A stretch of 64,000 bases of DNA from Planctomycetota bacterium. GTDB lineage: Bacteria > Planctomycetota > Phycisphaerae > UBA1845. This document shows positions 11,396 to 39,296 of this stretch, in pieces. A model generated the notes under the pieces. It did no database searches. It was not told where the DNA came from and worked only from the letters and a program-made list of their open reading frames with translations. How positions within the stretch are numbered: the stretch's first letter is position 1; each line of letters starts with the position of its first letter. The position numbers were made by a program, and so were the translations under genes. The stretch covers positions 20,332 to 84,331 of the forward strand of contig JACQFE010000012.1 in the NCBI GenBank assembly GCA_016200265.1, in the 5' to 3' direction.

Positions 11396-11404
11396 AAACG
11401 CGGT

Positions 11405-14740: not shown

Positions 14741-14742
14741 GC

Positions 14743-18360: not shown

Positions 18361-19077
18361 TCATGCCGCCTGGCGGAGCATGATGTTTTTCTTGAAGATG
18401 AGGCAATACTCGTGCTGGATGGGAACGTCTTCCATTGAAGCGTAAGTGACGTGGTCAGACCGGCAGTTGTGCTGGGCCTTGATGATGACCGAGCGAAGTT
18501 CGCCCAGCGGTCCCGCCATGTTCATGACCTCACGGGCGATGGGATAGTAACACCGGTTTCGTCGAACGTCGCCCATGAGCACGGCCATCCGCCCGCCTGG
18601 AAACACTGCGTCGTAGCATTGGCGGAGTGCAAGAAAGAGCGTGCCAATAAACTCGTCGAAGGTTTCGCAAGTGCTCAAGTCTGCGGCATCGTCGCTGTAT
18701 CGAATGATGTTCCAGTACGGCGGATGAACCCAGACCAAGTCAAATGGGCCGGGAAGTGGTTCGGCAACAACGTCGAAGCCCATGCGTAGGTCGCTTCCCC
18801 AGTACTCGATGCATGAGTTCTCACACCGATTCAATTCCGCTATCACATCCTTTGTAGTGCCGGAACCCATCATCGGGTCGGCGACTCGCCGGGGTCGGTA
18901 ACGGCGGATGAGGTCGCGAAACAAGGTTCCGTCGCAGTTCCCGCGATAACTTGCGTCGCCCCACGGGCCGCGAACGGGATAAGAAACAAGCGAGGTCATC
19001 TCGCGGTCCGGCAGCGGCTGCTTCACCGCTGGGACATCGGCGGGCTTCAAGAATGTTTGCTTTTGAGTGAGTTGCAT
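18361..19077 (-). CDS. Orphan DNA methyltransferase (N6-adenine/N4-cytosine type)
   Basis: Motif I-like VADPMMGSGTT, followed by motif IV DLVWVHPPYW ((D/N/S)PPY/F-type). GGAGGAAAT SD before ATG 19077; the longest ORF reaches 19278. No adjacent restriction gene. Confidence 0.75.
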   Translation of the reverse strand: MQLTQKQTFLKPADVPAVKQPLPDREMTSLVSYPVRGPWGDASYRGNCDGTLFRDLIRRYRPRRVADPMMGSGTTKDVIAELNRCENSCIEYWGSDLRMGFDVVAEPLPGPFDLVWVHPPYWNIIRYSDDAADLSTCETFDEFIGTLFLALRQCYDAVFPGGRMAVLMGDVRRNRCYYPIAREVMNMAGPLGELRSVIIKAQHNCRSDHVTYASMEDVPIQHEYCLIFKKNIMLRQAA

Positions 19078-19090
19078 AATTTCCTCCATG

Positions 19091-19127
19091 ATAAAAGGAG
19101 CCGGCCGAGCGTTGACCCGACCGGCTC
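19091..19127 (-). terminator. Intrinsic-terminator-like hairpin after 19133..19405
   Basis: Minus strand reads GAGCCGG-(16 nt)-CCGGCTC followed by CTTTTAT. Confidence 0.5.
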
Positions 19128-19132
19128 GCGAG

Positions 19133-19405
19133 TTAAACGGTGGCCTCTTGGTCGGTTGGACCAGCGGCATTCGGCTTGCTGCTCGAAGTTTCGAGCAACC
19201 AAGCGTGGATTTGTTCGAGCACCTTACAGAGAGTGGGAACGTCATTTCGGCCGAAGGAAGCACTTCGTTTCCAAGCATCTCCCTTCCGGTAGAGCCTGGA
19301 CACCGCCACGGTGCGGAAGCTTCCCTTGCTTGTCGCGTTCTCGAAGACCGAAGCTACGATGAGCCCCTCTCTGATTTGGTGTATAGGTTTCTTGTTGTTT
19401 TCCAT
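19133..19405 (-). CDS. Small conserved protein, paralog 2 of the 3-member family
   Basis: 90 aa with TAGGAGGAT SD. MENNKKPIHQIREGLIVASVFEN...VSRLYRKGDAWKRSASFGRNDV... Confidence 0.7.
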   Translation of the reverse strand: MENNKKPIHQIREGLIVASVFENATSKGSFRTVAVSRLYRKGDAWKRSASFGRNDVPTLCKVLEQIHAWLLETSSSKPNAAGPTDQEATV

Positions 19406-19426
19406 CTATTTAATCCTCCTAATAAA

Positions 19427-19472
19427 GGTTTTTGTCTGTTCAATCACCAACGGATGTTGGACAGCAAAAACC
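19427..19472 (-). promoter_or_regulatory. SD-proximal stem-loop with GGTTTTTG/CAAAAACC arms
   Basis: Plus strand GGTTTTTGTCTGTT-(loop)-ACAGCAAAAACC. On the coding strand the 3' arm ends about 10 nt before the SD of 19133..19405. Confidence 0.5.
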
Positions 19473-20112
19473 GCTGGGAGGATGAAAAGCCCCGAAGCGG
19501 TCATCAGCGAAGCGCGGCGGAGCAAAGGGCGAGGGGCATGACGCGCCGCAGGCGTGGCGGGACACTTGCCGCGAAGCAAGCGAAGTCGACCGTGACGGGC
19601 GTGATGGAAAACAACAAACCGACCACCAATATCTAGGGCGAAAAGAAAATCACGAATGAGAACGCGGGATTCCTAGGGGAGCTGGTGTCCTATGAAAGGA
19701 GCAGCAGAAATCGCATTGATTCCGAAGGCCGTCGTTTTGCCGGCATAAAGGTGCTCGAACTGCTCGCTCCACGCGCTTCGTAGGGAAGTCGCTGGTCTTG
19801 TTCGAACAAGTGGTCGCCTTGTCCCTCGCGAGCCGGTCGGTCACTCCAAGCTCGGCCAAGAACGGGGGGAATTATGACCAAGGGTGCCCTAGGGGTGCCT
19901 CCTCGCTCAAAGGGCGAAAATAAGGGCTATTCCGACTTCTACGAGACCCTATGGATGTGATTGTTGCGTCAGGGATGAGAGGGCCGGGGATGAGTGCCAC
20001 TGCCTGTCATAGGTTTGAAAGACGGTGCCGTCTTTCACGAAGTTGAACACTAGGAATTGGAGAGGCGACATTTCGAGCAGCGACGCTGAAACGAAATTGG
20101 ATGGTAGACACG

Positions 20113-20601
20113 TCAATCGAGTCCATCGACACTGCCGGTGGAAGCACGAATCGCAGCGATGAGGGTGTCCGCAATACGGGCTTCAAGACGTTCGCGTTCG
20201 GGTTCTCGCCCACGGGCGTTGGAGGGGAGTTTGAGAGGCCCCAGCTTTTTCGCGTGTGTTTCGAGGTGGGACATATTGTGGGTTACGCTCTGGAGAACTG
20301 CACGGGCGACGTGACTGGTGGTGAGCTTCGCTCCGCTCGTCTCGCGGAAGAGTGCGACCAATCGAGAAAGAGCTGCGTCGGTGGAAGGTGTCAAAATGAG
20401 TTCGCGTTTGATTCGCGGCGTCTCCCCAGTACCGGTTCCTGGGCAGGCGGCATCCGCTTGACCGCCCTGCGAGGCGGAGTACGGCGGGTTCCTCGGTTCG
20501 ACGGGAAGCGGTCGCGGTGCCACGGCTCGGGCCGCCGCGTGAATGTCGAGCAGTCGGGCGATGGATGATGAAGGCTGTGGTTGACGAAGGGGCTTTGGCA
20601 T
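20113..20601 (-). CDS. Hypothetical protein downstream of ParA (possible centromere-binding partner)
   Basis: 162 aa. Starts 7 nt after the ParA stop. Call is by position only; no family recognised. Confidence 0.45.
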   Translation of the reverse strand: MPKPLRQPQPSSSIARLLDIHAAARAVAPRPLPVEPRNPPYSASQGGQADAACPGTGTGETPRIKRELILTPSTDAALSRLVALFRETSGAKLTTSHVARAVLQSVTHNMSHLETHAKKLGPLKLPSNARGREPERERLEARIADTLIAAIRASTGSVDGLD

Positions 20602-20607
20602 TTTGAT

Positions 20608-21507
20608 TCATCCGTTAGCAGTCATCGTAACCGGCTCGACGATGTGCGAGTCACCGACCTGTTCAAGTATGGCGTAGTTCGTCGGTTCCAGTACGCCAGC
20701 CAAGAATGCCCCTCGATTGCGAACTCGGTGTTCAAGTTCGAGCGAGAGCCGGAGATACTGTTGGGCGACCGGAATGGTCTGGAACCGAGGAAATTGGAAC
20801 AGGGTTCTCCCCTTCCCCGATGCCTCCGGAAGAACCACTGCCTGCGAGATTGTGTTTTCAAACCGCCGACCGGGCAATGCTTGGTTGACAACGGTCTCAA
20901 GTTGGCCCCGGAGCCGGGTTGCACGGCCGTCTACATTGGTGAACACCACGCCGAGGATTTCCAACGCTGGGTTGCGGTGTCTTCGAACGTCGGCAATGTC
21001 ATTGAAGGCTTCGGTCAAGCCACCCAGAGAAAGGGGATGCGGGAACGCGGAAAGAAGAAACCACTCGGCCGTCGAATAGGCGGCGACTGTGGTGATGAAA
21101 CCGGCAGACGGTCCGGTATCAAGAAACACGAAATCGTATCTTAATCGAGCTTCCGCAACCGGCCGCTCAAGGACACGCGTGCGGTCGAGGTACTTTGATA
21201 ACAGAACGTCGATTTCGCCGAGCTGCGGTCTTGACGGGATGAGGTGTACGCCGGGCGGCATGTCGTCGACGATGGTGAGGTTTTCGATTGCCTCATCGGT
21301 GGTAAGAAGCTCCAACGTGCCCGCGTAGCTCTTGGTCGGTACGCCGAGGTGTTTGGTAGCCCCGGCGGCGGGGTCAAGGTCCATGACGAGGCACCGACTT
21401 CCGCGTTGTCCAAGTGCGGCCGCGATATGAACGCAGTTGGTTGTCTTCCCCACGCCGCCCTTCTGATTACCAACCGCGATGACCGTACCAAGTTCGTTCT
21501 CTTCCAT
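20608..21507 (-). CDS. ParA-family partition ATPase of the element
   Basis: VIAVGNQKGGVGKTTNCVHIAAAL (deviant Walker A), LVMDLDPAAGAT, FVFLDTGPS. Start taken at MEENELG (21507); the longest ORF reaches 21588. Confidence 0.85.
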   Translation of the reverse strand: MEENELGTVIAVGNQKGGVGKTTNCVHIAAALGQRGSRCLVMDLDPAAGATKHLGVPTKSYAGTLELLTTDEAIENLTIVDDMPPGVHLIPSRPQLGEIDVLLSKYLDRTRVLERPVAEARLRYDFVFLDTGPSAGFITTVAAYSTAEWFLLSAFPHPLSLGGLTEAFNDIADVRRHRNPALEILGVVFTNVDGRATRLRGQLETVVNQALPGRRFENTISQAVVLPEASGKGRTLFQFPRFQTIPVAQQYLRLSLELEHRVRNRGAFLAGVLEPTNYAILEQVGDSHIVEPVTMTANG

Positions 21508-22091
21508 TCGCTCCGTTAAAAATCTAATGCATGCCCGCGTGCCCGTTGTCGGGGAGGCTCGCCGGCGTGGATGCCGGCGATGCCGCAACCCCTACGACTC
21601 TTGGATACGACACCCGACGAAAACTGGCAACAGGTTTCTTGCGGGCGGCATCGAACCGAACAAGCGTAGCGATGCGGTCGGAGGAGAACGACGGTGCCTG
21701 TGAGTGCCATGACTATGGCATTCCGGCATGCCCGCATGCCGCGTCGCCTGAAAAAACAGGACTTGTCCGACCGAAAGCCGCGTGCGATGACTAGAATCGA
21801 CGCGACGTCAGAATGGATTCGTTGCGGCTGCTGTCAAAAACTTGAGAAGGGTCATGTTGCCATGATTTAGAATTGTTGAGCTGGACATAGAGCGACGGTT
21901 CAGGTCGCTCCATGTCGTGAATGAGTAAGCCCTCTCGGATTCGCGATGAATGAATCCCGTAGTTTCCTTCTAGCGTAATTCCGAGCATGTCGTCAAGCTC
22001 GTTTTGAGCGGCGGGGGCTTTGTCATCTCAACACCACGTGGCGATTGGTCTTTCCGGAACGGGCCCGCGATGCCCGGAAAAGGAGAGAGGG

Positions 22092-23546
22092 GTGAGGGAG
22101 ATACGAAACAAGCCGGAAGGCGGGTATTGCATTGTTGCGGCGTTCGAGGTCGCGTGGATTTTATGTACGTACAAAGCGGGGTTCATTCGCTGGTACGATG
22201 TCCGGGTATGGTTTGCGTGCAAAGAGGCGGCGGCGAGACGTTGCGGGCTCCGCAACGGCCGCTCCGCAAAGTACCGCGTGGAGGAGATTTGCAGCTTGGT
22301 CGGCGGGGTGAACGGCGGATGTGTCCGCGCGGCCCTGCGACGCCTGGAAGCCACGGGGCTTTTTCGGTTTGGGGAGACTGCGATTCGTTTCGCAACTTCA
22401 CCCGATGAGCTTCGAATCGGAGACTTGTCCGGCTTCTGGTCAATGGTCCACGCCATTGGGCAGAAGAACCGAAAAGTTCCGATTCCTCGGCGAATCGTCC
22501 GGTACATCGCGGGCGGAATGCGAAAGACGCTCGCGGGCACCTTACTTGGGCACGTGCTTCGGTGCTGCTATTTGAACGGGGCGGAGTATTTGTCGGAAGG
22601 CTCGTGCTCGGCGTCCTGGGTCGCTCGTGTCTTTGACCTCGATGAGCGGCACGTCAAGCGAGCGAGAAAGCATCTTGCCGAAATCGGTTTACTCTCGGCG
22701 GTAGAGTCCGATTCGTGGCACCGCAAAAAATATGGGGCGAGGTTCGCGGTCTCTCCGACGTGGTCCGATTCGGTCGAGCAACCGCGAGAGCGAATCGTCA
22801 AACGGCCACCTCGAAGTGAGCTTTCCACAAACAAACGGCCACCCCTCTTGATTCTTAAAGAGAACTCCTTCGGAATTGGAAACCAGAAACCCGCATTGGC
22901 CGCGGACCGGCCAACTGGTGTTTGCACGCAAAGGGGTGCGAGCGCCGAATCGCCGACGATGCGGCATGTGACCACGGATGATATCCGGGACACGCGGCGG
23001 TTGGTCGGAGCGGGTGGGTTGTTTGATGACGCCGTGCGGCGAGGGCTCGTCAACCGTTGTGAGGCCGACCGGCTCAAGTTTGTGGCCGCGGCGGAACGGG
23101 CTGTCCGCGAAGCGACGCGAAACCCGGGCGGGTTCTTCGTGCGGTTGGTTCGTGCCAAACTGTGGCACTACATCACGCTGGAGCAGGAAGACGCGGCTCG
23201 GCGGCGGCTTCGGCGAGTTGCGGAAGAGGATGGCCGGACCGTGGAACGATGTCGAGGGTCGATTGGACCGCCGTGGAGCGACGAATTAGCGCACGCTTGC
23301 CGCGATGCTGGACATCCTGATGAGCAGCGACGAGTGGGTGGGGAGCTGGAGGTTGTTCGCGAGTTGATTGCACGGTCGTTGGCGTTGGCGGCAGAGGTTC
23401 AGTCGATTCAGAGCGTTGACCGAGAGACCGGACACGGAGTGGAACGGTCGGTGCAGGGCGTGGAATCGTGGGAGCTGGGCCTCAACCAGCGAGGTCGGCA
23501 AGGTCGGGGTCAACACTCCGCTTGCTGGGAGCGGAGGGTTGCGTGA
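22092..23546 (+). CDS. Hypothetical protein with two winged-helix-like segments (possible replication/maintenance initiator)
   Basis: GGAGAGAGG SD before GTG 22092. Segments ...CVRAALRRLEATGLFRF... and ...VKRARKHLAEIGLLSAVE... look like winged-helix recognition helices. Divergent from parA. No named family recognised. Confidence 0.4.
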   Translation: MREIRNKPEGGYCIVAAFEVAWILCTYKAGFIRWYDVRVWFACKEAAARRCGLRNGRSAKYRVEEICSLVGGVNGGCVRAALRRLEATGLFRFGETAIRFATSPDELRIGDLSGFWSMVHAIGQKNRKVPIPRRIVRYIAGGMRKTLAGTLLGHVLRCCYLNGAEYLSEGSCSASWVARVFDLDERHVKRARKHLAEIGLLSAVESDSWHRKKYGARFAVSPTWSDSVEQPRERIVKRPPRSELSTNKRPPLLILKENSFGIGNQKPALAADRPTGVCTQRGASAESPTMRHVTTDDIRDTRRLVGAGGLFDDAVRRGLVNRCEADRLKFVAAAERAVREATRNPGGFFVRLVRAKLWHYITLEQEDAARRRLRRVAEEDGRTVERCRGSIGPPWSDELAHACRDAGHPDEQRRVGGELEVVRELIARSLALAAEVQSIQSVDRETGHGVERSVQGVESWELGLNQRGRQGRGQHSACWERRVA

Positions 23547-23853: not shown

Positions 23854-24136
23854 AGCGTCCTCCGTAAGTCGTAATAAACGCCGACCACAAGGTCACGCCG
23901 TGAGCGAGCGGTCAAGGAGGAACGCGAAGCGGCAAATCCTTGACGGCGGAAGCTCCGGCGTGATTCGATGGGTTGACGTATGCGACAGTCGGAGGACGCA
24001 ACGTTTCGGGTGTAGACCAACTCAGACACGGGCTCATTCTGATTGGAAATTGGCGGACGAAGACAGATTGCCGGTGTGCAAAGTAATTGCAGACTCAAAC
24101 TGCACCGACGGAATCGAAAACGAATGCAACGGGTAC

Positions 24137-24286
24137 ATGGACCTTGCGACCAAACCGGTCGCCTGTCCAACCGAACGGATTCCGGCCATGTCGGAATGGG
24201 GAATGGTCTTCGTGACACTGTTGACGCTTACCTCCAGTACGCTGCTGTGCCTGCGTCGCGGCAACGCCGCGGGAGGGGAAAGCTAG
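24137..24286 (+). CDS. Candidate mini-ORF that is little more than an IPTL-CTERM-like sorting signal
   Basis: MDLATKPVACPTERIPAMSEWGMVFVTLLTLTSSTLLCLRRGNAAGGES*. IPAMSEWG + TM + RR matches the IPTLSEWG-type signal also seen at 42829..43794. No clear SD, and the start could lie upstream (a Cys-rich stretch CKVIADSNCTDGIENEC is in frame). Confidence 0.35.
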   Translation: MDLATKPVACPTERIPAMSEWGMVFVTLLTLTSSTLLCLRRGNAAGGES

Positions 24287-24538
24287 GGGAGGGGAGGTTT
24301 GGAACCGGGCGTGCGGGGTTCCAAGCCATGCCCGGCCAGCCGCCCCAGGCGGGTGGCCGGTTCCCCCAAGAAATCCTTTCGAGCGAGCGTCGACGGGTCG
24401 GGGTCCCGACGACGAGAGCGAACCTTCCCTCACAGGTGACACGTCGCTTTCGCTCCTTGCGGCATGAACCGATGGGCCGCTCTATTCAGGAACGCTTCGC
24501 AAGTGTCAAACGCCGTTACGTTTTTATTCAAACAACAG

Positions 24539-24568
24539 TTGATTTTTGGGGTCGAGTTGCGCTATCCT
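24539..24568 (+). promoter_or_regulatory. Sigma70-like promoter candidate
   Basis: TTGATT (24539-24544), 18 nt spacer, TATCCT (24563-24568), in a locally AT-rich patch just upstream of the structured segment. Confidence 0.35.
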
Positions 24569-24574
24569 AGCCTC

Positions 24575-25710
24575 GTGAAACATTGTTTCACGGTCGTCAG
24601 ATTCGTAAACGCGAATCGTTTGACGTTCATCATCACGGGCTTCGGTGCTCGGTAAATCCAGGTTCACCACCTGGACTAAGAGGGCGGTCTTATCAGCTGC
24701 CATGCCGAAGGCCCGTAGCGCCGGATGCCGCGAGAGCGGCTCGTCCGGTGCGAGGGAGGCTCCAGAGAGTAATCCCGTATTCGGAGTAATCCTCTGGTTC
24801 TATCCCATGTGTTGTGCCACATCGTGACACCTTTCTTTGAGTCTGGGCGACCGGGAAAGACCCGCCCATGGGGCGGGCCGCGGTAGTCGAACGGGTGAAG
24901 TCCGACGTTGTCGGACGTAATCCCTCCGTGGGGTTCGGGGCAAAGCCTTCGGGCAATTCGGGTGTAAGTCTCGGAAGCCTCGTTCAACACCGGCCAGCGT
25001 GGGGAGTTCGTCCCTCGTGAGGGGAACGACCGCATGAAGACAACATGCGGCGATTTCCGTGAAACGCGGAAACGATGAAAAGCTCAACCATGAAAGGCCC
25101 GTCAAGGGCTTGCTGGTCAGTTCAATCGGAGACGGTGCCGAAACGCGTTAGAAAGACCTTCGCCGAGCGGTAAGCCGAGCTTCTGTTTTCGTAGGCAGAA
25201 ATCGTCCCGATGCGTCGGGATGGAGAGTGCGCTCCGCCGGAAGGCGGAGCGACACGGCGATGCGAGTCAAGGGACTCTTGGTCAAGCGACGTGACCGATT
25301 GGATGACGACTAACGATAACCGGGGAAAGACTGCGGCGGCCGGGGTGATAGCCGGTGCCTGAGTGTGTCACTCAGGTGCTTCAAATGCCGTAGTCCGGGA
25401 GCGGGGCCCAAGTAGGAGTTCGCGGGAGCGGAGCGGAACCGCTGCAAGGCAGTAGCGGTTCCGTGTGGTGCTGACGGGTGGTGCCGGGCACGAGAACACC
25501 GACGAAAGGGCTGACGGGCATTTTTCTTGACCCGTGATGATGACGTGCTGGCTGGGGAGGGATCCCGACTTTTCGGGATTCCCTCCCCTCGCTTGTTTCC
25601 TGGGAAGGAATTGATTCAGCGGGCGAAAGAGGTCTCGCCGGGAGGCGAGGCGTCTTTTGTCGGTGGAATGACGACGGACAGTCGAGGTGTACCTCGCGTC
25701 CGTCGGAGGT
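24575..25710 (+). ncRNA. Large hairpin-dense non-coding segment: candidate structured RNA / long leader (family not recognised)
   Basis: No protein-like ORF in any frame. More than 15 local stem-loops, including 24574-24592, 24900-24916, 25205-25220, 25230-25251 (GGAA loop), 25358-25376, 25434-25463, 25554-25588 and 25672-25705. GNRA and UUCG loops read correctly only on the + strand. Confidence 0.4.
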
Positions 25711-25854
25711 TTGGGGTTCGCAACGGCCATGAATTGGCGTGCGGCTATTCCAAGAGAAAGCAGCACGCGTGCGGCGTTGCGGACGAAGGTAATGGGTGAA
25801 GGGAATGGTTGGGTGATGCGGAGGTTCGTGCGTGCACGAAGGAGGTGATGGCGT

Positions 25855-26064
25855 GTGGTTTGGTGGAATGGTGTCGATGGCCGCATGATCTGCGAGGCCG
25901 CGGTGGAGTACATCGCGGATCTCGAACGCATGGGCCAGGTGTTCGTGACGCCAGCGGACTTTCCTTGGCATGTGCGGGAAAAGCTGGAGACGTACTACCT
26001 GGGCGGCATCGGCCGTAAGCCAACGGACGAGGAACTCTTGGAACTCCTCGCGTTCGACCGGTGA
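25855..26064 (+). CDS. Hypothetical small protein (69 aa)
   Basis: AGGAGG at 25840-25845, GTG at 25855, strong G/C third-position bias. ...AAVEYIADLERMGQVFVTPADFPWHVREKLETYYLGGIGRKPTDEELLELLAFDR. No family recognised. Confidence 0.55.
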   Translation: MVWWNGVDGRMICEAAVEYIADLERMGQVFVTPADFPWHVREKLETYYLGGIGRKPTDEELLELLAFDR

Positions 26065-26156
26065 GCGTATTGTTAGAGGTTGGTCGTGCACCAACAAGGT
26101 TTTGATGATGGCTTTGGGGATTGTGCCGAGAAACAATCCCATCATTTGGAGGGGAG

Positions 26157-26876
26157 ATGGTTCGATGTGAGGCGGTATCGGTCGAAGGCTTCGTGCAGCA
26201 ACTTGCGGTGGCGTATGTTCAGCACGGCCATTGGTTCTACGTAACCGGCGAAGTGCCTAAACGGAAGGACCCGCGTGCAGTCGATGCGAAACTCATCGAG
26301 CTGTACGGCCTAGGCCTTTCCAAGTGGGCGAGAGCACGGAGCAAGGGAGCGGGGTGGGCGAGCGTTCGGTACATTCGTCACGGCGTGTTCTTCGTGCTTA
26401 TCGCGACGAAGGGGCGGCATGTGTTTTACGAACGTGAGCCGGGCATCCGCGACATTCGCCGCCATCCGATTTACTACGCGGGATACAGCATCTCATATCG
26501 GCGAGGAGTGGACCGGAAGTGGCATGTTTCAGTTCGGATTGCGGCGAACGAATACCTTCGACTCAAAGCGTATATGGTGGGACTTGCTGCCCGTCGTTCG
26601 GTTGAGAAACTCGCGGTTGAATTCGGCGAGGTGCCATTCGAGCCGTACGCACCGGTCCGCCGGCAGCTTCTTAACATTCTTCGAGCGGTGAATCGGGTGC
26701 GGCACGCGGCGGGGTTTGAATTGGTGCCGGTGTCGGCGTTACGGTTTCGCCGGCGGGTGGTGAAGCCGTTTAGCTGCCCGGAAGGCGATGGAGGAGCTGT
26801 GGCCCTGCGTGTTGGCGGCGAGTACATTGGGGACATTGATGATGTTAACGAGACGATTCGAAGGGAATGTGCATGA
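26157..26876 (+). CDS. Hypothetical basic protein (239 aa)
   Basis: GGAGG 4 nt before ATG 26157. Coding-like composition (VEGFVQQLAVAYVQHGHWFYVTG...VRYIRHGVFFVLIATKG...PFEPYAPVRRQLLNILRAVNRVR). No family recognised. Its stop overlaps the next start (ATGA). Confidence 0.6.
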   Translation: MVRCEAVSVEGFVQQLAVAYVQHGHWFYVTGEVPKRKDPRAVDAKLIELYGLGLSKWARARSKGAGWASVRYIRHGVFFVLIATKGRHVFYEREPGIRDIRRHPIYYAGYSISYRRGVDRKWHVSVRIAANEYLRLKAYMVGLAARRSVEKLAVEFGEVPFEPYAPVRRQLLNILRAVNRVRHAAGFELVPVSALRFRRRVVKPFSCPEGDGGAVALRVGGEYIGDIDDVNETIRRECA

Positions 26877-27133
26877 GTCCACGTCGGGCCGGCGATAAGA
26901 AAACGCGATTCACATTGTGGCTGCGCGAAGACCAATTGGAGGAGGTCGAAGAATTGCAGCGTGAGCTTGGCAAGGAGTCGCTCGCGGAAGTGGTGCGAGA
27001 CGCGTTGGATGTATACCGCTCGCTCCTGAAAGCTCGCGAAAATGGGATACGGCTCTATTTCGAGGATAGCAAGGCCAAGGAAAAGGGCCGTATCTGGTTG
27101 CTCCCAGGGCCTCCGCCGGTCGGTCGGCGGTGA
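26873..27133 (+). CDS. Ribbon-helix-helix (CopG/Arc-like) protein
   Basis: KKTRFTLWLREDQLEEVEELQRELGKESLAEVVRDALDVY follows the beta-strand/helix/helix RHH pattern. Translationally coupled to the upstream ORF. Confidence 0.6.
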   Translation: MSPRRAGDKKTRFTLWLREDQLEEVEELQRELGKESLAEVVRDALDVYRSLLKARENGIRLYFEDSKAKEKGRIWLLPGPPPVGRR

Positions 27134-27254
27134 TTTTTTTCGGCTGTATATCTTGCTTTATGATAATAACATCTTACAATCGGACGGTCTTTGGAAGATA
27201 TAGGCGTTGGAGGGCGAAAGCTGATGCGGGCTCAGTTCAAGGGCTGTTCGAGGA

Positions 27255-27893
27255 GTGCGTTTGACGGAGGTGTCAAATGCGAACTTCGGGCTGTTCATCG
27301 CCTATGTGCTTCCTGGGTTCGTGTCGCTTCTGGCGGTCGGATATCTCGTGCCTGGGGTTTGGACGTGGCTTTTGGCTTCGCCGGGAGCCGGTGCCGGCGG
27401 GCCGACGGTGGCGAGCTTCTTGTATCTGTCCCTGTCATCAGTGGGGGCGGGGCTCACCGCGAGCACGGTTCGATGGGTCGTGATGGACTGGTTGCATCAT
27501 CACACGGGCGTTCCGCGGCCGAACTGGGACGACGCCAGGCTTCAGGAAAAACTCGGGGCCTTCGAGGCGTTGGTGGAGAACCACTATCGGTACTACCAGT
27601 TCTACGGCAATTCATGCGTGGCGTTGGCCTTTCTGTTCGCGGCCCGCCGCGTGGGCGGCGGAGTCGCGCTGATTGGGTTCGATGGATTCGACGGAGTGAT
27701 TGTTGGGATTTTCGTGATTTTTTGGGCTGGTTCGCGGGATACGCTTCGGCGTTACTACACGCGGGCCACGGTTTTGTTGGGTGATAGAAAGGAAGCGAAT
27801 CATGACAAACGGGCATGTGAAAGTGGATGTGGCGGAGGACGGCAAAAAGGTCGCCGGAAAAAAGGACGCGGGCGCGAGTACCAAGGCCGGTAA
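27255..27893 (+). CDS. Hypothetical integral membrane protein
   Basis: Four hydrophobic segments (FGLFIAYVLPGFVSLLAVGYLV, VASFLYLSLSSVGAGL, CVALAFLFAA, VIVGIFVIFWAG). The start is uncertain (GTG 27255 / TTG 27261). The 3' end has poor codon bias and overlaps 27802..27963. Confidence 0.5.
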   Translation: MRLTEVSNANFGLFIAYVLPGFVSLLAVGYLVPGVWTWLLASPGAGAGGPTVASFLYLSLSSVGAGLTASTVRWVVMDWLHHHTGVPRPNWDDARLQEKLGAFEALVENHYRYYQFYGNSCVALAFLFAARRVGGGVALIGFDGFDGVIVGIFVIFWAGSRDTLRRYYTRATVLLGDRKEANHDKRACESGCGGGRQKGRRKKGRGREYQGR

Positions 27894-27963
27894 GGGCGGC
27901 GAAAGACGTGAGCAGCCGCCGCAAGTTGCAACGGTTCGTGACGGTGGTGCGACCCGCAGATAA
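27802..27963 (+). CDS. Candidate small Lys/Gly-rich protein (53 aa)
   Basis: GAAAGGAAG upstream of ATG 27802. G/C third-position bias is better than in the overlapping frame. Confidence 0.3.
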   Translation: MTNGHVKVDVAEDGKKVAGKKDAGASTKAGKGGERREQPPQVATVRDGGATRR

Positions 27964-28304
27964 GGTGATCGGCCACCGATCGCGGAAAAAGTGCAAGTAG
28001 CTCGGGATTGCGGGTCGTCGGCGACGCTTCTTTACTAATCGTTTGTGCGAAAGCCTGCGTCCTAACCGGCGGCTCTCGGTCCCGGGCTACTTGCGTTCAA
28101 AATTGAAGGTAGCATGTTTCGCGAAGGCAAGTCAAACATCGTTTGGCTTGTTTTCGCTTGTGCGGAACACATGTGTGCGGAGGCGATTCTTAGGGTCTAG
28201 GTGGCGGTGGACCACGAGCGGATTTCCATTCAGCTTGCTTGCCATTCGGGAATAGGGGTCTGGAAAAGACCAACCGAAGGTGTGCTCCGGCTGATCATCT
28301 GGGG

Positions 28305-29062: not shown

Positions 29063-29536
29063 CTACAACGGTTTTGGTCGGAAGAGTTCGTGCAAGAATG
29101 CAACCGGGTCGAGTATCTTGAGTTTCGGGAATCGCTGGATGAATTCGCGTCCTTCGGGAGTTTCGGGTTTCATGAGGTCGAGAAGGTCGCGGTCCGTAGT
29201 GACCAAGTAAGGTGCTTCCGCTGCTAGAGCGAGGTTCACGTATTTGCTGTCCTTCGGGTCGCGTTGGAGCGTGTAGACCTCGGCGACATTCGGGAACCAT
29301 TTCACGGCGCGCAGATAGCGAGCGAGGAAGGCATCCACGGCCTTGGGCGTGAGGGCGGGGAACTTCGTGTGGTGCTCCGGGCGGTTGAGTACGTCGTGGA
29401 TCTCGGCGAGCACGTCGGGACTCATGCAGAGCGTGACGCGAGCTTCTTCAACCAGGCGAAACGTAGCGTACGTACGTTGCGGGCGAGCGGCTGCTCGAAA
29501 AAATAGCATGCAATCGAAGACGGCGAGCGTGCTCAC
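29063..29536 (-). CDS. PIN-domain toxin (TIGR00305-like)
   Basis: N-terminal LAVFDC... and C-terminal DPKDSKYVNLALAAEAPYLVTTDRDLLDL. GTG 29536 overlaps the antitoxin stop (GTGA). Confidence 0.75.
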   Translation of the reverse strand: MSTLAVFDCMLFFRAAARPQRTYATFRLVEEARVTLCMSPDVLAEIHDVLNRPEHHTKFPALTPKAVDAFLARYLRAVKWFPNVAEVYTLQRDPKDSKYVNLALAAEAPYLVTTDRDLLDLMKPETPEGREFIQRFPKLKILDPVAFLHELFRPKPL

Positions 29537-29796
29537 GCGGACTTGGCCCGCTTGGCCTGGTGTTCGTCCCAAACCTTATCGCGAAGGCCTTCGTAGAAGT
29601 CGTCGAGCTTGTCGTCCATCATGCCGCTGTCGTCTACCTGCTTACGGAAGGGGGCAAGTAGTTCGTCCACGCTGGGAGTTGTGAGTGCGTCGTCGAGAAC
29701 CCGTGCGGCGTAGGACGTGATGTCCTCACCGGCGGCTTGCGCTCGTTCGCGAAGTTTCGCTTCGGCATCGGGCGAGAGCGGTACGCTGATGCTCAT
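29533..29796 (-). CDS. RHH-type antitoxin
   Basis: 87 aa. MSISVPLSPDAEAKLRERAQAAGEDITSYAARVLDDAL. Directly upstream of and overlapping the PIN gene. Confidence 0.65.
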   Translation of the reverse strand: MSISVPLSPDAEAKLRERAQAAGEDITSYAARVLDDALTTPSVDELLAPFRKQVDDSGMMDDKLDDFYEGLRDKVWDEHQAKRAKSA

Positions 29797-30035: not shown

Positions 30036-31763
30036 CTACCCTATCGAAGCAGCAGCGGTCGAAACCTCCTCCTCGTCCTCCACCAAAGGCGGTTCCATGT
30101 CGGCCGTTTCTGGATGGGGCCGGTCCGTGGTCGAAGCGTCATCGCGTAAAGATGCCCAAGACTTCGGTTCGGGAATCGCGTTCTTCGCATCGGCCTCGAT
30201 CGTGGCGTAATCAACGCCGAGGATTTCACACATACGCTTGGCGTCCGTGGCCTGAGCCGGTGCCTGTTCGTTGGTTATGGCGTTCAGCCGCTTGATCCAG
30301 ACTTGCGCGACTGCGAACAAGGCAGCGGCGGCCGGCTCTCCTGATGCCGAGTTACGCAGCGAATCGTACTGAGTCCACGCTTCACCGTTATCCAGAAAAT
30401 CAGCCCGGTGCATGGCGCCGAACGTGACAAGCAAGGCGACGAGGTCGAAAACCACAGTTCCCTCGGCCTTGTTATTGCGACGCTGAATCCACGGAGAGAC
30501 GATTTCCTGGGCCTTTTCAGGGGTAAGCTCACGCAAGTACGTCTGCACGTGCTTCACAACATAAGCGTCGCGCCGCTTCTGGAGGCGGGCGCGCCGTTCG
30601 ATCAGCGTCATCGGGACAACGTTGCCGCCCTCGTCGCGCGGCCTGCCTTTCCCACTCCCATTATGCGAAACGGTGGAATCTTCAGAGGCCACGTAAATGA
30701 GCTTCCCGGCCTTGGGCCCATCGACCTGCATGGCCGGTTCGCTTCCCGGTTTGTGCGGCTTCACGGGCTTGGCGCCGTAAAGACGGTCCAGGCGATTCCC
30801 GAATACTTCACTGACGGCGGAACTGAGGCTGCCGACTCCGAGATGAACGAGCCGAAGCGTTGGATGCTCTGCTCGAAGCGCGCACTCGCAACGCTGAACG
30901 AAAGCCACGTGCTTTCGGTCGAAGCACTGCGGGTCAAGGCAACGGTCGTTTTTTGAGAGCTTTCCGTTCCCCGCCGACTCCGCCTCTGCGAACAGCATCG
31001 GCTGTTTGGACGACCGCTTCTCGCAGTTGAGGCAAGCGCCAGCTTTTGGGACGATGGTTTCGTCTTTGGGATCCCAGGGCATGGCCCCGAGCGACCGAAG
31101 ACCATCGTCGATGATGCGGCGCAGTTCGTCGACCGTGGGAAACCCTCTGCCAAACACGGCCATGAAGTTGTCCTCGGATAGAGCGGTCTGGGTTGGTTCC
31201 GGCAACCGGGCGATGAGTTCAAGATGTGCCGCCGAAAAACGGCTGACCTCGGAATCGGGCTTACGGATTTCGCTCTTCCAAGCGGGAGTAAGACGAGTTA
31301 GCGACGCCCGCCTTGCAAGATAGGGTATGCTTTTCCCGAGCTTCGCCGCGATGGTGTTCAAGTCAAAGTCACGCTCGAAGGCAAGTTGAATCGTTTCCGC
31401 TTCCTCCAGCGGATGAAGGTTCCTTCGCTGTATGTTCTCGGCAATAGTCACACTCAGCGCTTCCTCGTCATCAAGGCGACGGACGATCGCGGGAATGGCG
31501 GTCAGTCCGGCAAGCTTCGCGGCGCGCCAGCGCCGCTCGCCTGCCCTGATTTCCCAGTGTCCAGGCTCGGTTGCATGGACGCGGACGACGATGGGCTGCA
31601 AAAGCCCGTCTTTCTTGATGGAATGGGAAAGGGATCGGAGCGACGTATCGCTGATACCCCTGCGGCGGTTGTCAGGCGTCGGTATGATTTTGTCGACTGG
31701 CAACATTTGAATACGGTCCTTGGTCGCCGCTTTTTCCTTCTTTCTTCTCTGTGTGCGTGGCAT
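30036..31763 (-). CDS. ParB/Srx-fold N-terminal domain protein with long C-terminal extension and a Cys4 cluster
   Basis: LPVDKIIPTPDNRRR..., LLQPIVVR, IRAGERRWRAAKLAGLTAIPAIVRRLDDEEALSVTIAENIQRRNLHPLEEA (ParB box motifs). Later CLNCEKR...CLDPQC. AGGAG SD 8 nt before ATG 31763. Confidence 0.75.
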   Translation of the reverse strand: MPRTQRRKKEKAATKDRIQMLPVDKIIPTPDNRRRGISDTSLRSLSHSIKKDGLLQPIVVRVHATEPGHWEIRAGERRWRAAKLAGLTAIPAIVRRLDDEEALSVTIAENIQRRNLHPLEEAETIQLAFERDFDLNTIAAKLGKSIPYLARRASLTRLTPAWKSEIRKPDSEVSRFSAAHLELIARLPEPTQTALSEDNFMAVFGRGFPTVDELRRIIDDGLRSLGAMPWDPKDETIVPKAGACLNCEKRSSKQPMLFAEAESAGNGKLSKNDRCLDPQCFDRKHVAFVQRCECALRAEHPTLRLVHLGVGSLSSAVSEVFGNRLDRLYGAKPVKPHKPGSEPAMQVDGPKAGKLIYVASEDSTVSHNGSGKGRPRDEGGNVVPMTLIERRARLQKRRDAYVVKHVQTYLRELTPEKAQEIVSPWIQRRNNKAEGTVVFDLVALLVTFGAMHRADFLDNGEAWTQYDSLRNSASGEPAAAALFAVAQVWIKRLNAITNEQAPAQATDAKRMCEILGVDYATIEADAKNAIPEPKSWASLRDDASTTDRPHPETADMEPPLVEDEEEVSTAAASIG

Positions 31764-32076
31764 TGGATTGACTCCTAACACGAGGGAACAGCGAAACCTC
31801 GCTCAGCCACACGGCCGAGATGGCGAAGTTCCGACTGACGAGGCTTGTATGGAATGGACTCCGTGTTCGCGGTTGGTGGCGTTTAAGCAAGAAAACCTTC
31901 ATCACCTACGACATGGCGGCATAGAGGACCCTGCGGGCCTTCACGCGGCCATACCGAATCGTCTGCTCAACGTGATGAGAAAAAGAACGAAGTGTGCCAT
32001 GATTATGGCACATATGGTGTTCTCAAATCAAGCCTGAGACGTGCGAGGTTGAAACGGGACCGCGGGCGGCGCCCAC

Positions 32077-32385
32077 TCAGTAGTCCTCGGGGAGGAGGAC
32101 GGTGGTGGCGGCGCGGTCGGCCTCGGTGATAATCCAGAACTTCGTTCCGGTGGAATCGTGGTACACCGAGAATAGCCGAAGGTATTTGTCCACCGAGAAG
32201 TCGTTTTCGGCCTTGTCCTCCGTGCAACAATCGCCCCAGTCGCCCCGCGCATGACGCCCCAGGGCGTGCCGAACGTCTTCGGGCACGAGGTGCTTCATGG
32301 CGTTCGGGGTGATGAGCGTTTGGCCGAGCGGGAACTTTGTCTGGGCCTTGCCTTCGGCTGGATTGTTGATGTTTTTCTCGTTCAT
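32077..32385 (-). CDS. Hypothetical protein, 'GDWGD ... WIITEADR..TT.LLP.EY' family, paralog B
   Basis: 102 aa with GGAGGA SD. This motif set recurs in small plasmid/ICE-borne proteins I have seen annotated only as hypothetical. Confidence 0.65.
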   Translation of the reverse strand: MNEKNINNPAEGKAQTKFPLGQTLITPNAMKHLVPEDVRHALGRHARGDWGDCCTEDKAENDFSVDKYLRLFSVYHDSTGTKFWIITEADRAATTVLLPEDY

Positions 32386-32404
32386 GTTCGTCCTCCATGA
32401 AAAA

Positions 32405-32448
32405 GGGTTTTTGCGTTTCTTCGCGAAAGCGTGGGGAACCAAAAACCC
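32405..32448 (-). promoter_or_regulatory. SD-proximal stem-loop with GGGTTTTTG/CAAAAACCC arms
   Basis: 9-bp arms at 32405-32413 and 32440-32448. On the coding strand the 3' arm ends about 8 nt before the SD of 32077..32385. Confidence 0.5.
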
Positions 32449-32658
32449 GCGGTGGAGGACGGCAAAACGATGGTGGAAACCAACCGAAGCCAAGGCAGCG
32501 GACGTGACAGGCCCGGCGTTAGCCGAGCCGAAAGGCGTGGCCTGGCCGCGGCCGATGCGGCTTCCGCAATATGTAGTTCCAAGGGATGACAAGTTGGACG
32601 AATGAATTCAATTCCGCCGGTGCGAGCACAGTCATCACCCAGCGCGCTCTCGCCTCGC

Positions 32659-35600
32659 CTAACGGGTGTACTCCGAGCTGCCGGGCGCTTCCGTCACCGT
32701 CAAATCTCGGACTGGCTTCCGGTGGGCCAATAGAAGCGGCAGCACGGCGGTCGCATCCTCCAGCACGACGAACCAACGTCGCTTGTGGCTAATGATCTCC
32801 TCGCAAATTCCGCAACCGCGAAGTTCTTCGCGATTGGCCGGAACGCCATTGAGAATGAGTTCCGCCACGTCGTCGCCCGCAATGCGTGCGGCTGTAAGTC
32901 GCCAGCCGTTGTCCAATTCGATCACCGCGCCGCCGCTCAAGAGGTCGAGGATCTCCGCTGGAGTCGCTTCGCCAAGCGGCGTACCTATGCCGAGGCGCTG
33001 CTTGACGTTCGGCACGTCGGACGGACTCAGATTCAAGCCGACCAGGGCCTGTCCGCCAGAGAGAACCGCCCGTGCGATTTTTACGGTTTGGATGCCGGAG
33101 GATCCCATGACTTTGTCGTAGATCGGAAAGATCGCTCCGCTGAGGATGTGAAAGCGACGCGGCTCGGTCGGGGGCGTGTTGGCGTACTCGGCTTCCCACC
33201 ACTTTCGGGCTTGCACGACATCGACGCGCTCGTACTTACCGTCCAGTTCGTGACGCTCCAGCGCTCTACGCGGGCCTTTGACTCCCGTCAAAAACACTTC
33301 GTTGCGATTTGCTTCCCAGTGATCCGAGACAGCGTAGATTCGTTCGCTGCGTTGATTGCGATGAAAGCCGTGGGTTGCGGATGCGGCCGCCGCGTCGAAA
33401 GTGTGTCTGACGACATCGACCTCGCCTTCCAGTTCATGGATCATGGTGCGCGCGCCGGAGGCCGAATCCACGAATAGCGTTTGCGGTTCGGTAATTCTTC
33501 GCAGATTGCGGGCGCGAATTTCCTCCACGCCGAAATCGAAGGCCCCGTTTTGCTTGGCCGCCTCGACGACCTCCAGATAAAGCTCATAGAAGATCTCGAA
33601 GACGCGATTCTGCTTCTCGACATGCAGCACCATGATGCGATTGAGGAACTGTTCGACGTTGCTGGCGTAGTTTTCTCGCACGGCGGTTTTTTCTTTGTTC
33701 AGCACCCCCATCCGGTCCAAGTCACGAAGGCCGATTCCTGCGTCCGCGCGTTGGCCCGCCTCGACCTGCCGGTAGAGCTTGGCTAGCGCTGCTTTTCCGT
33801 AATAGTCGGTCACGTCTTCCGGTCGAAAGAGGTCGCTGGAGAGCGAATGCCGCTCTCCTTTGGTCAGCGCGCCCAGTGCTGCGAGTCGTCTGGAGACGGC
33901 GTTCACGAGCCGCTTCTGGCCGGCCACGTCGAGCAGCACCAGCCGGATCACCGGGGCCGAAGTCTGATTGGAACGATGCACGCGGCCAAAGGCCTGCATC
34001 TGCTGGTCGGCCGACCAGGAAAGCTGAAAGGCGTAGAAGACGCGGCGCTGCTGATTCTGTGCGTCCACGTCAGCGTGAACGCTGATTCCCATGGAGCCCG
34101 CCCCGGAGATAATCGCCAGCCGTTTCCTACCCGCCTGAAACTGCCGCGTCTCGTACTCATTGAGTTGACGACGCGGCACGCCTCGAATCTTGCGACGAAC
34201 ATACTTGCCGTTCTCGAAACGGTGCGTGCGGCCGCTGATTTCGGCCACACTCCAAATACCGAAGCGGGCAATCAGCGCATCCATCGGGTTTTGCGGAAAG
34301 TCCAGGTCGGCGACTCTGCTGAGGAGTTTTTGCTGCCGACGTTGGTTCTCGCGATTGATTTCCGGGTTGCCGGCGGCGTCTTCGACGCGAACGGTGATGA
34401 CGTTCCCGGTCACCGGGTCGGTCTGTTCGCGATACTGATATAACGGAAATTGCGTCTCGATGAGTTGCACGATCATTTCTCGCGGCGTGGCGTCGAGTTC
34501 GGAGAGCTCGATGCCTTGTGCTCGTGCGTCGCGCACCTTGCGGTCGGCCTGGGCCTCGCCGGTGTTGAACAGGCTCAAGACCACTGACCGTCCCTGGGAA
34601 AGATCCCTTTGAATTTCAGGAATGACGTCCGGCAGTGTGTAGGCCATCATGAGTTGCAGAAAGAATCGCTGTTGGGCGGAGTAAAACTGGGCGTACCGAT
34701 GGGCGTTTCGCTTCTGCCCCGCGTCGTGCTCAGCCGATTCGAAGGCCACCAGAAGCTCCGACCAGAGGTCCGCGATTTCGTCATACTGTCGCCGCTCCGC
34801 ATCGGACACACGGTGTAGAAGCGGTTCATATTCGACGGCGCTCTCGGGCACGACGCTTCCATCCGGCAAGCGTGTCGGGCCGTAGCTGATGGTGCGGGAT
34901 AAATAAGTGCCCACGCTCTTCAGGTCGCGGCAGAGCATTTCCATGGCCGCGACCCCTCCGCGTTCCATGGCCATGAGGAACGCCGAAAAATCTGGAAACG
35001 GCGCTCCTGCGCCCCAAAGGCCTAACCGTTCGTAGGGCGCCATGTGCCGGGCTTCGGTAGCTCCGGTGGCGCTGAAGTAGCGGACGCGGGCCCGCGGGAA
35101 TAGGCGTTGAAGGGCGATGCCCATGTTTCCGCGAAGGGTTCCCTCGTCCACGGTGGCCTTTCCACCATGAGGTGCCGCGGCCGCGTTCTTCATCAAGTGC
35201 GCTTCGTCAAAGGCGATGACTCCGTCAAAGTCTGGGCCAAGCCAATCGGTTAGCTGCTTGAATCGTGCTCGCTCGCCATCGAAATCTTTGCTCATCATGG
35301 TGTACGTGGTGAAGAGAATCCCCGATTCCACGAATATGGCATCGGTGGGCTTGAATCGGGCTTGATGAACGATGGGAAGCGGCACGCCGACCGCGTCGCG
35401 GTCGCGCTCCGCATCGGCGTGGAGCTGGTGGGATGCGGACAGGTGCACGTGCTTCTGGCGACCCTGCTCAAGCTCATTGTAAATGAAGGCGTAGATCTCC
35501 CTGCCCTTGCCGATGCCGGTGCCGTCGCCATTCCAATGGCCCTTTCGCGAACCATCGGGCAGAAGCATGCTCGTCGCCTGGCCGGCGTAGATCACGTCTT

Positions 35601-37254: not shown

Positions 37255-37323
37255 CCGTAGGTATCAGAAAAAACTACAAAGAAGTGATGTTCAGAAGAAC
37301 CGAGAAGCCCGAGTGGAAACGGC

Positions 37324-37578
37324 TTATGCGGCTTGCTCTTTTTCCTTCTCATTTTGCTCACGAATGAACGCCGCCGCTTGGCCAACAACGCTCACCAGAG
37401 CTTGCTCGTTGTCCTCGCGGAAGCTCTGTGCGTACCCGGCCTCCTCCTCACTCTTCTTGTAGGACCGGCTCAACGTATATTCGAAGAATTCGCCGTTCTT
37501 CCCGTTACGTTTCCACACCGACACGCCCACGGCTCCCTCGCGAAACGTTTGCACCGGCTTTTTCGTTTCATTTTCCAT
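37324..37578 (-). CDS. Small conserved protein, paralog 3 of the 3-member family
   Basis: 84 aa with GGAGG SD. MENETKKPVQTFREGAVGVSVWKRNGKNGEFFEYTLSRSYKKSEEEAGYAQSFREDN... Confidence 0.7.
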   Translation of the reverse strand: MENETKKPVQTFREGAVGVSVWKRNGKNGEFFEYTLSRSYKKSEEEAGYAQSFREDNEQALVSVVGQAAAFIREQNEKEKEQAA

Positions 37579-37951
37579 AAACACCTCCATGATTTGATTG
37601 TCTTCCCGATAGTGCCACATTCTTGGCACTTAAGCAAACACCGTTTGTTTCCTCGTTGCCTCTCCGTCGGAGGGGAAGAAGGGGGCGGGGGAGGTGCGGA
37701 ACCGGCGGAGTGCGGGGGTTCCGCGTCAAGCTCTTACTCCCCTGCTGAACGGATAGCAATCGTTAAGCTCAAGCGAGCACAGGTAGGCCGGGTCCCTGCC
37801 GGGGCGAGCGTTGTTGATGATCAACCGTGCAGGCATGTGTTCGATGGGGTTTCGATCGGGGTGGTTCGGACAGATTCCAGATTGATCGACAGCAGACGCC
37901 AAGAAAGAGAGGCCCGGTGGTGCCGAAAAACCTCTCTCTCGCAAGTGATGA

Positions 37952-39040: not shown

Positions 39041-39296
39041 GGCGCGAACCTCCTTTCGTAAATGAAAACCTGAATGCACCACCGGCTTCTCCGTTCCGCG
39101 TCGCACCTATCGGCGCTGAACGGAGTCGGTGGAGTTCCTCTTCCCTGGTCAGTTGCAAATGAACGAGTCTGTCTATTGGTGTTATGGTGGGATCGATGGA
39201 AGTTGTGCTCTTTTCTTATTCGCGGCCTCCCCCTTTTTTTGGATTTGCACCCCCACGGACGGACGGTACGCGGTGGTTTTACCCAACTACTCGGCG

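Follow-up and report, generated by a model that had tools for sequence, protein, structure and literature searches.

A 64 kb stretch of DNA from a Planctomycetota bacterium (contig JACQFE010000012.1; hereafter the window, to whose positions all coordinates refer) carries a large structured RNA (~24575-25763) and, downstream of it, a gene for a 239-amino-acid (aa) protein (26157-26876), which we identify with high confidence as a circularly permuted (CP) group II ribozyme and a distant homolog of the protein AcpG, respectively. The locus is a new, divergent member of a known but rare RNA-protein pair, surrounded by unrelated cargo genes. An earlier, sequence-only reading of the same DNA had recognised an accessory module on a mobile element, in which a large structured RNA accompanies an uncharacterised basic protein, and in this it was right (the open reading frames, ORFs, also lie where it had placed them); its view of the RNA as a leader, and of the genes as a five-ORF unit with a possible defence function, gave way to the evidence presented below.

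CP group II ribozymes correspond to the 'T-large' RNA (Roth, Weinberg, Vanderschuren, Murdock & Breaker 2021, PMC8637638), of which Cte 1 has been studied by cryo-electron microscopy (bioRxiv 10.64898/2025.12.30.696962); in this class domains 5 and 6 (D5-D6) precede domains 1 to 4 (D1-D4), and the splice sites are internal, with their order reversed (Roth et al. 2021, PMC8637638). In the window, 24716-24808 matched the Rfam family RF00029 (group II intron D5-D6) with 47.4 bits (gathering score 40). This match sits at the start of the structured segment and not at the end of an intron, which is the signature placement of CP group II ribozymes; apart from D5-D6, the segment matched no D1-D4 family of Rfam even at E<=1. 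The order of domains along the RNA is D4 3' strand, D5, D6, linker, D1, D2, D3 and D4 5' strand, with the following parts (EBS1, exon-binding site 1):

24575-25763, plus strand: CP group II ribozyme RNA in its minimal extent, which the first covarying hairpin and the tail pseudoknot delimit
24575-24625, plus strand: 5' hairpins
24640-24710, plus strand: 5' three-way junction with two P2-like hairpins (24657-24675 and 24684-24700); helices 4-8, which covary
24711-24716, plus strand: D4 basal stem, 3' strand, pairing with 25514-25519 (helix 9)
24718-24751, plus strand: domain 5; helices 10-11, GAGA tetraloop, UC bulge at 24741-42
24754-24806, plus strand: domain 6; helices 12-14, bulged branch-point A24802
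24807-08, plus strand: 3' splice dinucleotide AU, with the splice site after U24808
24809-24844, plus strand: linker, or 'exon', of 36 nt; predicted circular RNA product
24845-24850, plus strand: GGGCGA 5' splice-site motif at the start of D1, invariant in 44/44 homologs
24848-25325, plus strand: domain 1, by position; helices 15-34, EBS1-like loop at 25183-25190
25328-25396, plus strand: domain 2, by position; helices 35-37
25404-25513, plus strand: domain 3, by position; helices 38-44
25514-25519, plus strand: D4 basal stem, 5' strand, following D3 (helix 9)
25554-25600, plus strand: structural hairpin of variable sequence, strong in 44/44 homologs
25619-25664, plus strand: 20-bp hairpin (helix 45; 19/20 pairs covary), terminator-like here, with the tail GUCUUUUGUC
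25756-25763, plus strand: 3'-tail motif GAAAGCAG, pairing with the D1 loop CUGUUUUC at 25183-25190

In ~60 loci, nucleotide-level searches (nhmmer) showed conservation of the RNA region immediately ahead of the protein gene and in its orientation. The earlier claim that a segment of ~1.1 kb is structured was fully borne out by an alignment of 44 homolog sequences (A4) and the consensus structure derived from it with RNAalifold (48 helices, 296 pairs): paired cells reach 92.1% (as compared to 36-42% in slid-partner controls), both partners have changed in a compensatory way in 244 of the 296 pairs, and none of 500 shuffles attains these values. The mean column identity of this alignment is 42%, and the sequences are not recent duplicates. 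Helix 9 (6 bp, 100% paired, 4/6 pairs covarying) abuts both D5 and the end of D3, and is therefore the basal stem of D4, formed by the two ends of an RNA that is permuted within D4. Furthermore, D5 has five base pairs up to a 2-nt UN bulge (U24741-C24742), and the base pairs of D6 covary among the homologs (GGGA/UCCC, CGGA/UCCG, UGGA/UCCA). The invariant AU and GGGCGA that bracket a variable linker (15-60 nt long among the 44 homologs, and containing in the window a hairpin at 24809-24830, located by a hairpin scan) correspond to the splice motifs of the class, 'GGGCG and NU' (PMC8637638). None of the ORFs overlapping 24043-26145 encodes a reverse transcriptase (RT) or any other Pfam domain, and the window proteins that were scanned gave no match to a reverse-transcriptase family.

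A covariance model (R1) comprising D5-D6, the linker, GGGCGA and the first D1 hairpin detects a single copy in each of 60 loci, without exception on the strand of the protein gene. It also matches a planctomycete plasmid and two cyanobacterial plasmids (E 1e-32 to 1e-37), a Bacillus cereus plasmid (58.3 bits, E 2e-16) and, over its full length, the Thermus thermophilus plasmid pTT8 (5931-5750, minus strand, E 1.4e-5, with GGGCGAC), where the CP ribozyme has been placed divergent from TTHC007, at the position of the R1 match (PMC8637638). GGGCGA is shared by the pTT8, B. cereus and cyanobacterial matches. In one cyanobacterial record (Calothrix sp. NIES-4101 plasmid5, locus L004) two D5-D6-GGGCGA copies (1614-1788 and 3765-3929) lie 2.1 kb apart, together with one AcpG-like gene.

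The most widespread class-specific tertiary contact of CP ribozymes, a kissing loop between P2 and D2 (PMC8637638), is represented in the window by UAUCA (24691-95) and UGAUA (25346-50). Among the 44 sequences the observed pairing is 4.75 vs 4.01+-0.10 with shuffled partners (0/300 reach it), and the duplexes covary across homologs (CACCA/UGGUG, CAUCA/UGAUG, AACCA/UGGUU). Another 5' hairpin loop, CACCAC at 24665-70, is complementary to the D3 loop GUGGUG at 25478-83 in 40 of the 44 sequences, and may form a second kissing contact; it shows no covariation because both of its sides hardly vary.

By scanning for runs of unpaired, covarying columns we found a further pseudoknot, which is not among the three pseudoknots described for CP ribozymes in PMC8637638. 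It joins the terminal loop of the distal D1 hairpin (25183-90) to the 3' tail, in a duplex of 8-13 bp that is present in 44/44 sequences (33 distinct duplexes), with a mean of 9.61 bp vs 6.64+-0.22 for shuffled partners and a covariation of 0.441 vs 0.133 (0/500 shuffles reach it). The same D1 loop pairs more weakly with the last six nt of the linker, at the position of intron-binding site 1 (IBS1; 4.82 vs 4.39+-0.11, 0/300 reach it): fixed-column complementarity to the linker end was weak, and the loop-specific analysis gave a small but significant signal and brought out the stronger partner in the tail. Since the loop pairs with the linker end as well as with the tail, it acts like EBS1, whose IBS1 partner the tail motif mimics. 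A near-invariant TATGAATTGG-like motif (25727-25737), situated after the last conserved hairpin and ahead of the tail motif, could be a -10 element for acpG or a tertiary element of the RNA. A small ORF at the near-invariant ATGAATTGG was considered and rejected, as its ATG opens peptides of 2-100 aa that are not conserved.

The protein partner of this RNA is encoded by one gene, preceded by a strong Shine-Dalgarno sequence:

26157-26876, plus strand: AcpG-like protein, 239 aa, isoelectric point (pI) 10.1, conserved core at residues 1-210

The pI agrees with the basic character that the sequence-only reading had ascribed to this product. More than 2866 relatives were found at 90% clustering (all unnamed, none with a Pfam domain), and 1651 among representatives at 50% identity. 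The AcpG protein of Thermus (TTHC007, T. thermophilus HB8 pTT8) is a protein of ~260 aa that occurs near CP group II RNAs and has no detectable homology to anything (PMC8637638). BLASTP of the window protein against the 259-aa protein of pTT8 gave no match. Profile-profile comparison (hhalign), by contrast in kind of method, aligned a diverse profile of the window family (including divergent plasmid members) with the TTHC007/AcpG profile over 159 co-linear columns (95.1% probability, E 3.2e-8), and in AlphaFold2 (AF2) models of the window protein and Thermus AcpG (pLDDT 88.6 and 92.9) helices and strands follow in the same order. On the strength of these comparisons the 239-aa protein is likely a distant AcpG homolog. 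The two share a size of ~200-260 aa, a sequence devoid of known domains and a place beside a CP group II RNA, in addition to the profile match (~160 columns) and the succession of secondary-structure elements in the models. They differ in that Thermus AcpG has a Trp/Pro-rich C-terminal extension, which is absent from the window protein, and in that the family of the window protein is much larger (>2866 clusters at 90% and 1651 at 50% identity).

Foldseek returned no significant match for either model. The top PDB matches of the window model were RTs of retrons and group II introns (insignificant, E 0.013-0.03, TM-score 0.2-0.3), and RNA-dependent RNA polymerases came top of the viral library with similarly weak scores; the Thermus AcpG model gave no RT matches, and profile searches of PDB sequences and Pfam yielded no RT or maturase link for the AcpG-like protein. 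The idea that AcpG is an RT/maturase relic keeps a low probability, since the matches are insignificant, are not reproduced by the Thermus model and have no support in sequence.

For the comparison of gene neighbourhoods we retrieved 77 genomic loci with genes for relatives of the 239-aa protein, and five plasmid records; a narrower alignment served as query in the protein-pattern scan. RNA and acpG are co-linear and co-oriented in 60/60 loci, with the RNA motif 1.05-1.45 kb upstream of acpG on the same strand (in the 60 loci and in the window), and the motif also lies near the AcpG-like gene in four plasmid records. The tail motif is ~90 nt from the next gene (orf69, see below) in the window, and elsewhere ~220 nt from acpG. 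The clade spans Planctomycetota, Verrucomicrobiota, Acidobacteriota, Polyangiales and Cyanobacteria, and across the 82 related loci the RNA and acpG are the only conserved travelling partners.

The constant co-orientation, together with an RNA tail that ends 0.2-0.5 kb from the next gene and a terminator-like hairpin at 25632-25651, would also be expected if the segment were a cis-acting leader (attenuator or riboswitch-like) controlling a downstream operon of five genes, which is how the sequence-only reading had seen it; with such leaders the RNA shares its strong hairpins and its place upstream of the next gene on the same strand. We consider this explanation very unlikely, given that the RNA possesses the full catalytic architecture of a group II ribozyme and that, unlike attenuator and riboswitch leaders, it measures ~1.2 kb, comprises 48 covarying helices around a ribozyme core and uses terminator-like hairpins as internal structural elements. 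The hairpin at 25554-25600, which had been taken for an attenuator followed by a T-rich run, proved to be a covarying structural element without a U tract: a GC-rich hairpin of 10-17 bp occurs at this place in 44/44 homologs, in unrelated sequence and, in nearly all of them, without U tracts. As the tail motif at 25756-63 is needed for the pseudoknot, the functional RNA reaches at least 25763, past both hairpins, and has to be read through the one at 25619-64. Moreover, divergent or convergent arrangements of the RNA and acpG are found in Thermus and other taxa (PMC8637638), and in the window the ORFs downstream are not co-conserved and a terminator follows the ribbon-helix-helix (RHH) gene, as detailed for the features below:

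25855-26064, plus strand: gene for a 69-aa acidic protein (orf69), with an AAGGAGG Shine-Dalgarno sequence upstream
26873-27133, plus strand: RHH-like protein, its start overlapping the acpG stop (ATGA)
27113-27140, plus strand: intrinsic-terminator-like hairpin (27113-27130) and T7, following the RHH stop
27255-27893, plus strand: membrane protein of 212 aa, from a planctomycete family; facultative neighbour
27802-27963, plus strand: 53-aa Lys/Gly-rich ORF (53/60 aa), overlapping the end of the membrane-protein gene
27993-28021 / 28066-28094: imperfect inverted repeat with 29-nt arms, 76% complementary

These genes had suggested a cassette for defence, abortive infection, anti-defence or addiction, in which the RHH, basic and membrane proteins act together. 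The setting is not unfavourable to such a view (an accessory region of a conjugative element, beside a PIN/VapBC-like pair and ArdC), the membrane-protein gene follows acpG on the same strand in 9 loci, and defence against invading nucleic acids has been named as a possible role of CP ribozymes (PMC8637638). It nevertheless has a very low probability in our estimation, although for the RNA-AcpG pair taken by itself a part in defence is conceivable. Scans of the module proteins against Pfam, NCBIfam and PADLOC gave a sub-threshold RHH_1 match alone, and PADLOC-DB 2.0 in particular held no match for orf69, the AcpG-like, the RHH or the membrane protein. When co-conservation was checked among the 82 loci, the five ORFs were found not to travel together: homologs of the RHH-like protein occur in one locus, of the membrane protein in 12, of orf69 in 6 and of the 53-aa ORF in none, and the AcpG-like family outnumbers that of the membrane protein about eightfold. 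The strong terminator-like site between the RHH and membrane-protein genes, furthermore, makes the latter a separate unit, and this, together with a plus-strand gene upstream of the RNA (orf508, see below), contradicts the earlier description of the block as a self-contained plus-strand unit. The RHH, membrane and 69-aa proteins are local cargo.

As a third alternative, an ordinary mobile group II intron could have decayed to a 3' fragment, leaving the D5-D6 match beside unrelated GC-rich sequence by coincidence. This would account for Rfam giving the D5-D6 model alone, and is practically excluded by covariation data that already contradict it: D5-D6 and GGGCGA are followed by ~700 nt of covarying helices kept in 60 loci of several phyla, an RT ORF is absent, the D5 flank is tied to the end of D3 by a long-range helix, and pseudoknots tie the 5' hairpins to D2 and D3.

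Several observations weigh against the identification of the locus as a CP group II ribozyme with its AcpG. The catalytic triad of D5 is CGC in the window and not AGC, which 42/44 homologs have (the change is compensated by the partner G); a CGC triad also occurs in group IIC introns. The linker end of the window pairs poorly with the EBS1-like loop (4 bp), and the R1 link to the Thermus RNA is weak at the sequence level (22.4 bits). For the protein, homology rests on profile-profile comparison, and a narrower profile gives the same alignment at just 56% (E 1e-4). One locus (a Fimbriiglobus metagenome-assembled genome, L072) has a full-length AcpG-like gene (5001-5645) with 5 kb of upstream sequence in which neither nhmmer nor the covariance model found a ribozyme. 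Deletion of the pTT8 ribozyme had no significant effect on replication (PMC8637638), because of which a role in replication is disfavoured. Lastly, we infer the splicing chemistry, the RNA ends and co-transcription at the window locus throughout.

From five CP ribozymes tested in vitro (PMC8637638) and the Cte 1 structures (bioRxiv 10.64898/2025.12.30.696962), the window RNA is predicted to process itself into a small circular RNA and a branched RNA. The 2'-OH of A24802 would attack the 5' splice site between U24844 and G24845, and the freed 3'-OH of U24844 would then attack the 3' splice site after U24808, which would release the 36-nt linker as a small RNA circle and leave a branched RNA, whose 5' piece (P1/P2-D5-D6) would be tied 2'-5' to the piece comprising D1-D3 and the tail. 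The tail is made ~570 nt after D1, and its duplex with the EBS1-like loop is longer than any that the linker forms; once transcribed it would displace the exon or circle from EBS1, or staple and lock the fold. That the circle serves as an antisense regulator was considered and rejected, since the complementarity of the linker to nearby sequence never rose above the shuffled expectation in 44 loci.

Considering their constant co-orientation and short spacing, acpG probably lies on the same transcript as the RNA, i.e. the two are probably co-transcribed, and the ribozyme would run on at its 3' end into the acpG message. A candidate start for this transcript had been noted upstream:

24539-24568, plus strand: promoter-like element (-35 TTGATT at 24539-44; TGCGC-TATCCT at 24558-68)

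The element held up in so far as its TGnGnTAT..T columns are conserved in about two thirds of the homologs (~28-34/44), and did not in so far as a consensus promoter scan picked up no promoter at 24539-24568. AcpG is a very basic alpha/beta protein; most likely it is either a dedicated cofactor that binds the ribozyme or a protein that acts on the ribozyme's products. That the RNA-AcpG pair provides a maintenance or establishment function for conjugative plasmids and integrative and conjugative elements (ICEs) is a possibility that we put forward tentatively. A more elaborate scheme, to which we assign a low probability, would make of the CP ribozyme and AcpG a dedicated ribonucleoprotein, with AcpG as a strongly reduced polymerase-palm or maturase-like relic of the ancestral intron-encoded protein and the IBS1 mimic of the tail as a switch that captures EBS1, ejects the circle and locks the branched product; the acpG message (here with orf69 and RHH) would carry a 2'-5' branched ribozyme at its 5' end, and the whole would serve conjugative plasmids and ICEs, e.g. 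by aiding their establishment or by interfering with elements that compete with them.

Every hallmark of the CP class that we tested for, in sequence and in structure, was found. The window RNA has the permuted order, the NU and GGGCG motifs around a short hairpin-bearing linker, the UN bulge of D5, the bulged A of D6, the 5' P1/P2 hairpins and the P2-D2 kissing loop; it lacks an internal ORF, as the class does, and like it resides on plasmids or conjugative elements (for the class, plasmid residence and neighbouring T4 coupling protein genes have been reported, PMC8637638) with an AcpG gene nearby. It departs from the described CP RNAs in its greater length (~1.2 kb vs ~0.9 kb), in that no Rfam model recognises it outside D5-D6, and in its taxonomic range, since it comes from Planctomycetota, and its kin from Verrucomicrobiota, Acidobacteriota, Polyangiales and Cyanobacteria, taxa that are not named in the accessible parts of the text and supplement of PMC8637638. 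Whereas orientations are mixed in that paper, in the window clade the two invariably share a strand, with the RNA ahead of acpG. With canonical mobile group II introns the RNA shares the D5 triad and bulge, the branch A of D6, a GNGNG-type 5' end, EBS/IBS-type pairing by a D1 loop and, if AcpG is such, a dedicated partner protein. It differs from them in being permuted, with internal and reversed splice sites and no RT ORF, in its predicted products (in place of ligated exons and a lariat, a circle and a branched RNA) and in having no evident route of retromobility.

Few large classes of bacterial ribozymes lack a known biological role, and CP group II ribozymes are one of them; nor does AcpG have a known function or fold. 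The clade described here, which the accessible parts of the founding paper (PMC8637638) do not name, is large (>2800 protein clusters at 90% and 60 RNA-protein loci, in several phyla), strictly co-linear for RNA and acpG, and commonly situated beside repA/parA on plasmid-like elements. We argue that it offers deeper comparative data for both partners and a strong argument that RNA and AcpG act together. Moreover, the EBS1-like loop and its mimic of IBS1 in the 3' tail represent a new structural element, which bears on the control or irreversibility of back-splicing. The case also shows that CP ribozymes can be misread as 'structured leaders'.

With regard to the cargo genes, orf69 is a real, clade-specific gene: its frame is intact in 6 related loci, where substitutions are biased to the third codon position (e.g. 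18/12/42), and it is absent from loci outside its subclade. The RHH gene is coupled to acpG by the ATGA overlap, as had been proposed, and the RHH fold itself received the weak support of a Pfam RHH_1 match (E 0.002) that stays below the curated cut-off. For the membrane protein, which had been given four transmembrane segments, hydropathy (two broad hydrophobic regions and a weaker one) fits three to four; its 347 homologs are unnamed and none has a Pfam family, and in 9 of its 12 loci it lies on the same strand, ~340 nt after acpG. An alternative-frame ORF of 197 aa (27191-27784, plus strand) overlaps its gene, and homologs favour the membrane-protein frame; one gene caller chose the 197-aa and 53-aa ORFs on identical DNA of another sample (L084). 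The 53-aa ORF, which the sequence-only reading had listed as a possible gene, is probably not one, as it overlaps the C-terminal end of the membrane-protein gene and the 82 related loci yielded no homolog of it. The inverted repeat on the right-hand side exists, and is longer than had been noted (27993-28007 / 28080-28094).

Domain scans of the window proteins indicate a conjugative, plasmid-like element, inside which the RNA-acpG pair is located. Parts of it lie at 12731-17355, 18361-21588 and 30036-40313, and its genes include, besides a DNA methylase, HTH_17, a PIN toxin gene, a 1531-aa Sno-type helicase, DUF932 and ArdC, the following:

12731-14740: T4 coupling protein (T4CP)
14743-17355: TrwC relaxase
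20608-21588: ParA
22020-23546, plus strand: orf508 (508 aa), upstream of the ribozyme RNA
30036-31781: ParB

Among the related loci, 21 have a RepA (PF10134/Rep3) gene ahead of the RNA in the same orientation and 14-22 have ParA, and at least 24 of the 50 loci of >=8 kb (a lower bound) have a plasmid or conjugation marker. The product of orf508 has no Pfam match and homologs in 7 loci; as its gene sits where the 21 related loci have RepA (PF10134), it may be a replication initiator of another family. A search for the ends of the element found no convincing direct or att repeats beside the tRNA-Gly(TCC) on the minus strand (11324-11443 region); two perfect 16-nt direct repeats (11405-11420 and 11428-11443) follow this tRNA, and a 424-aa ORF without Pfam matches (11460-12734) adjoins them. 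Between the module and parB, a PIN_3 protein (29063-29572, minus strand) and a small overlapping ORF upstream of it (ending at 29533, minus strand) look like a VapBC-type toxin-antitoxin pair. The Sno-type helicase has an N-terminal mad2-like match in PADLOC.

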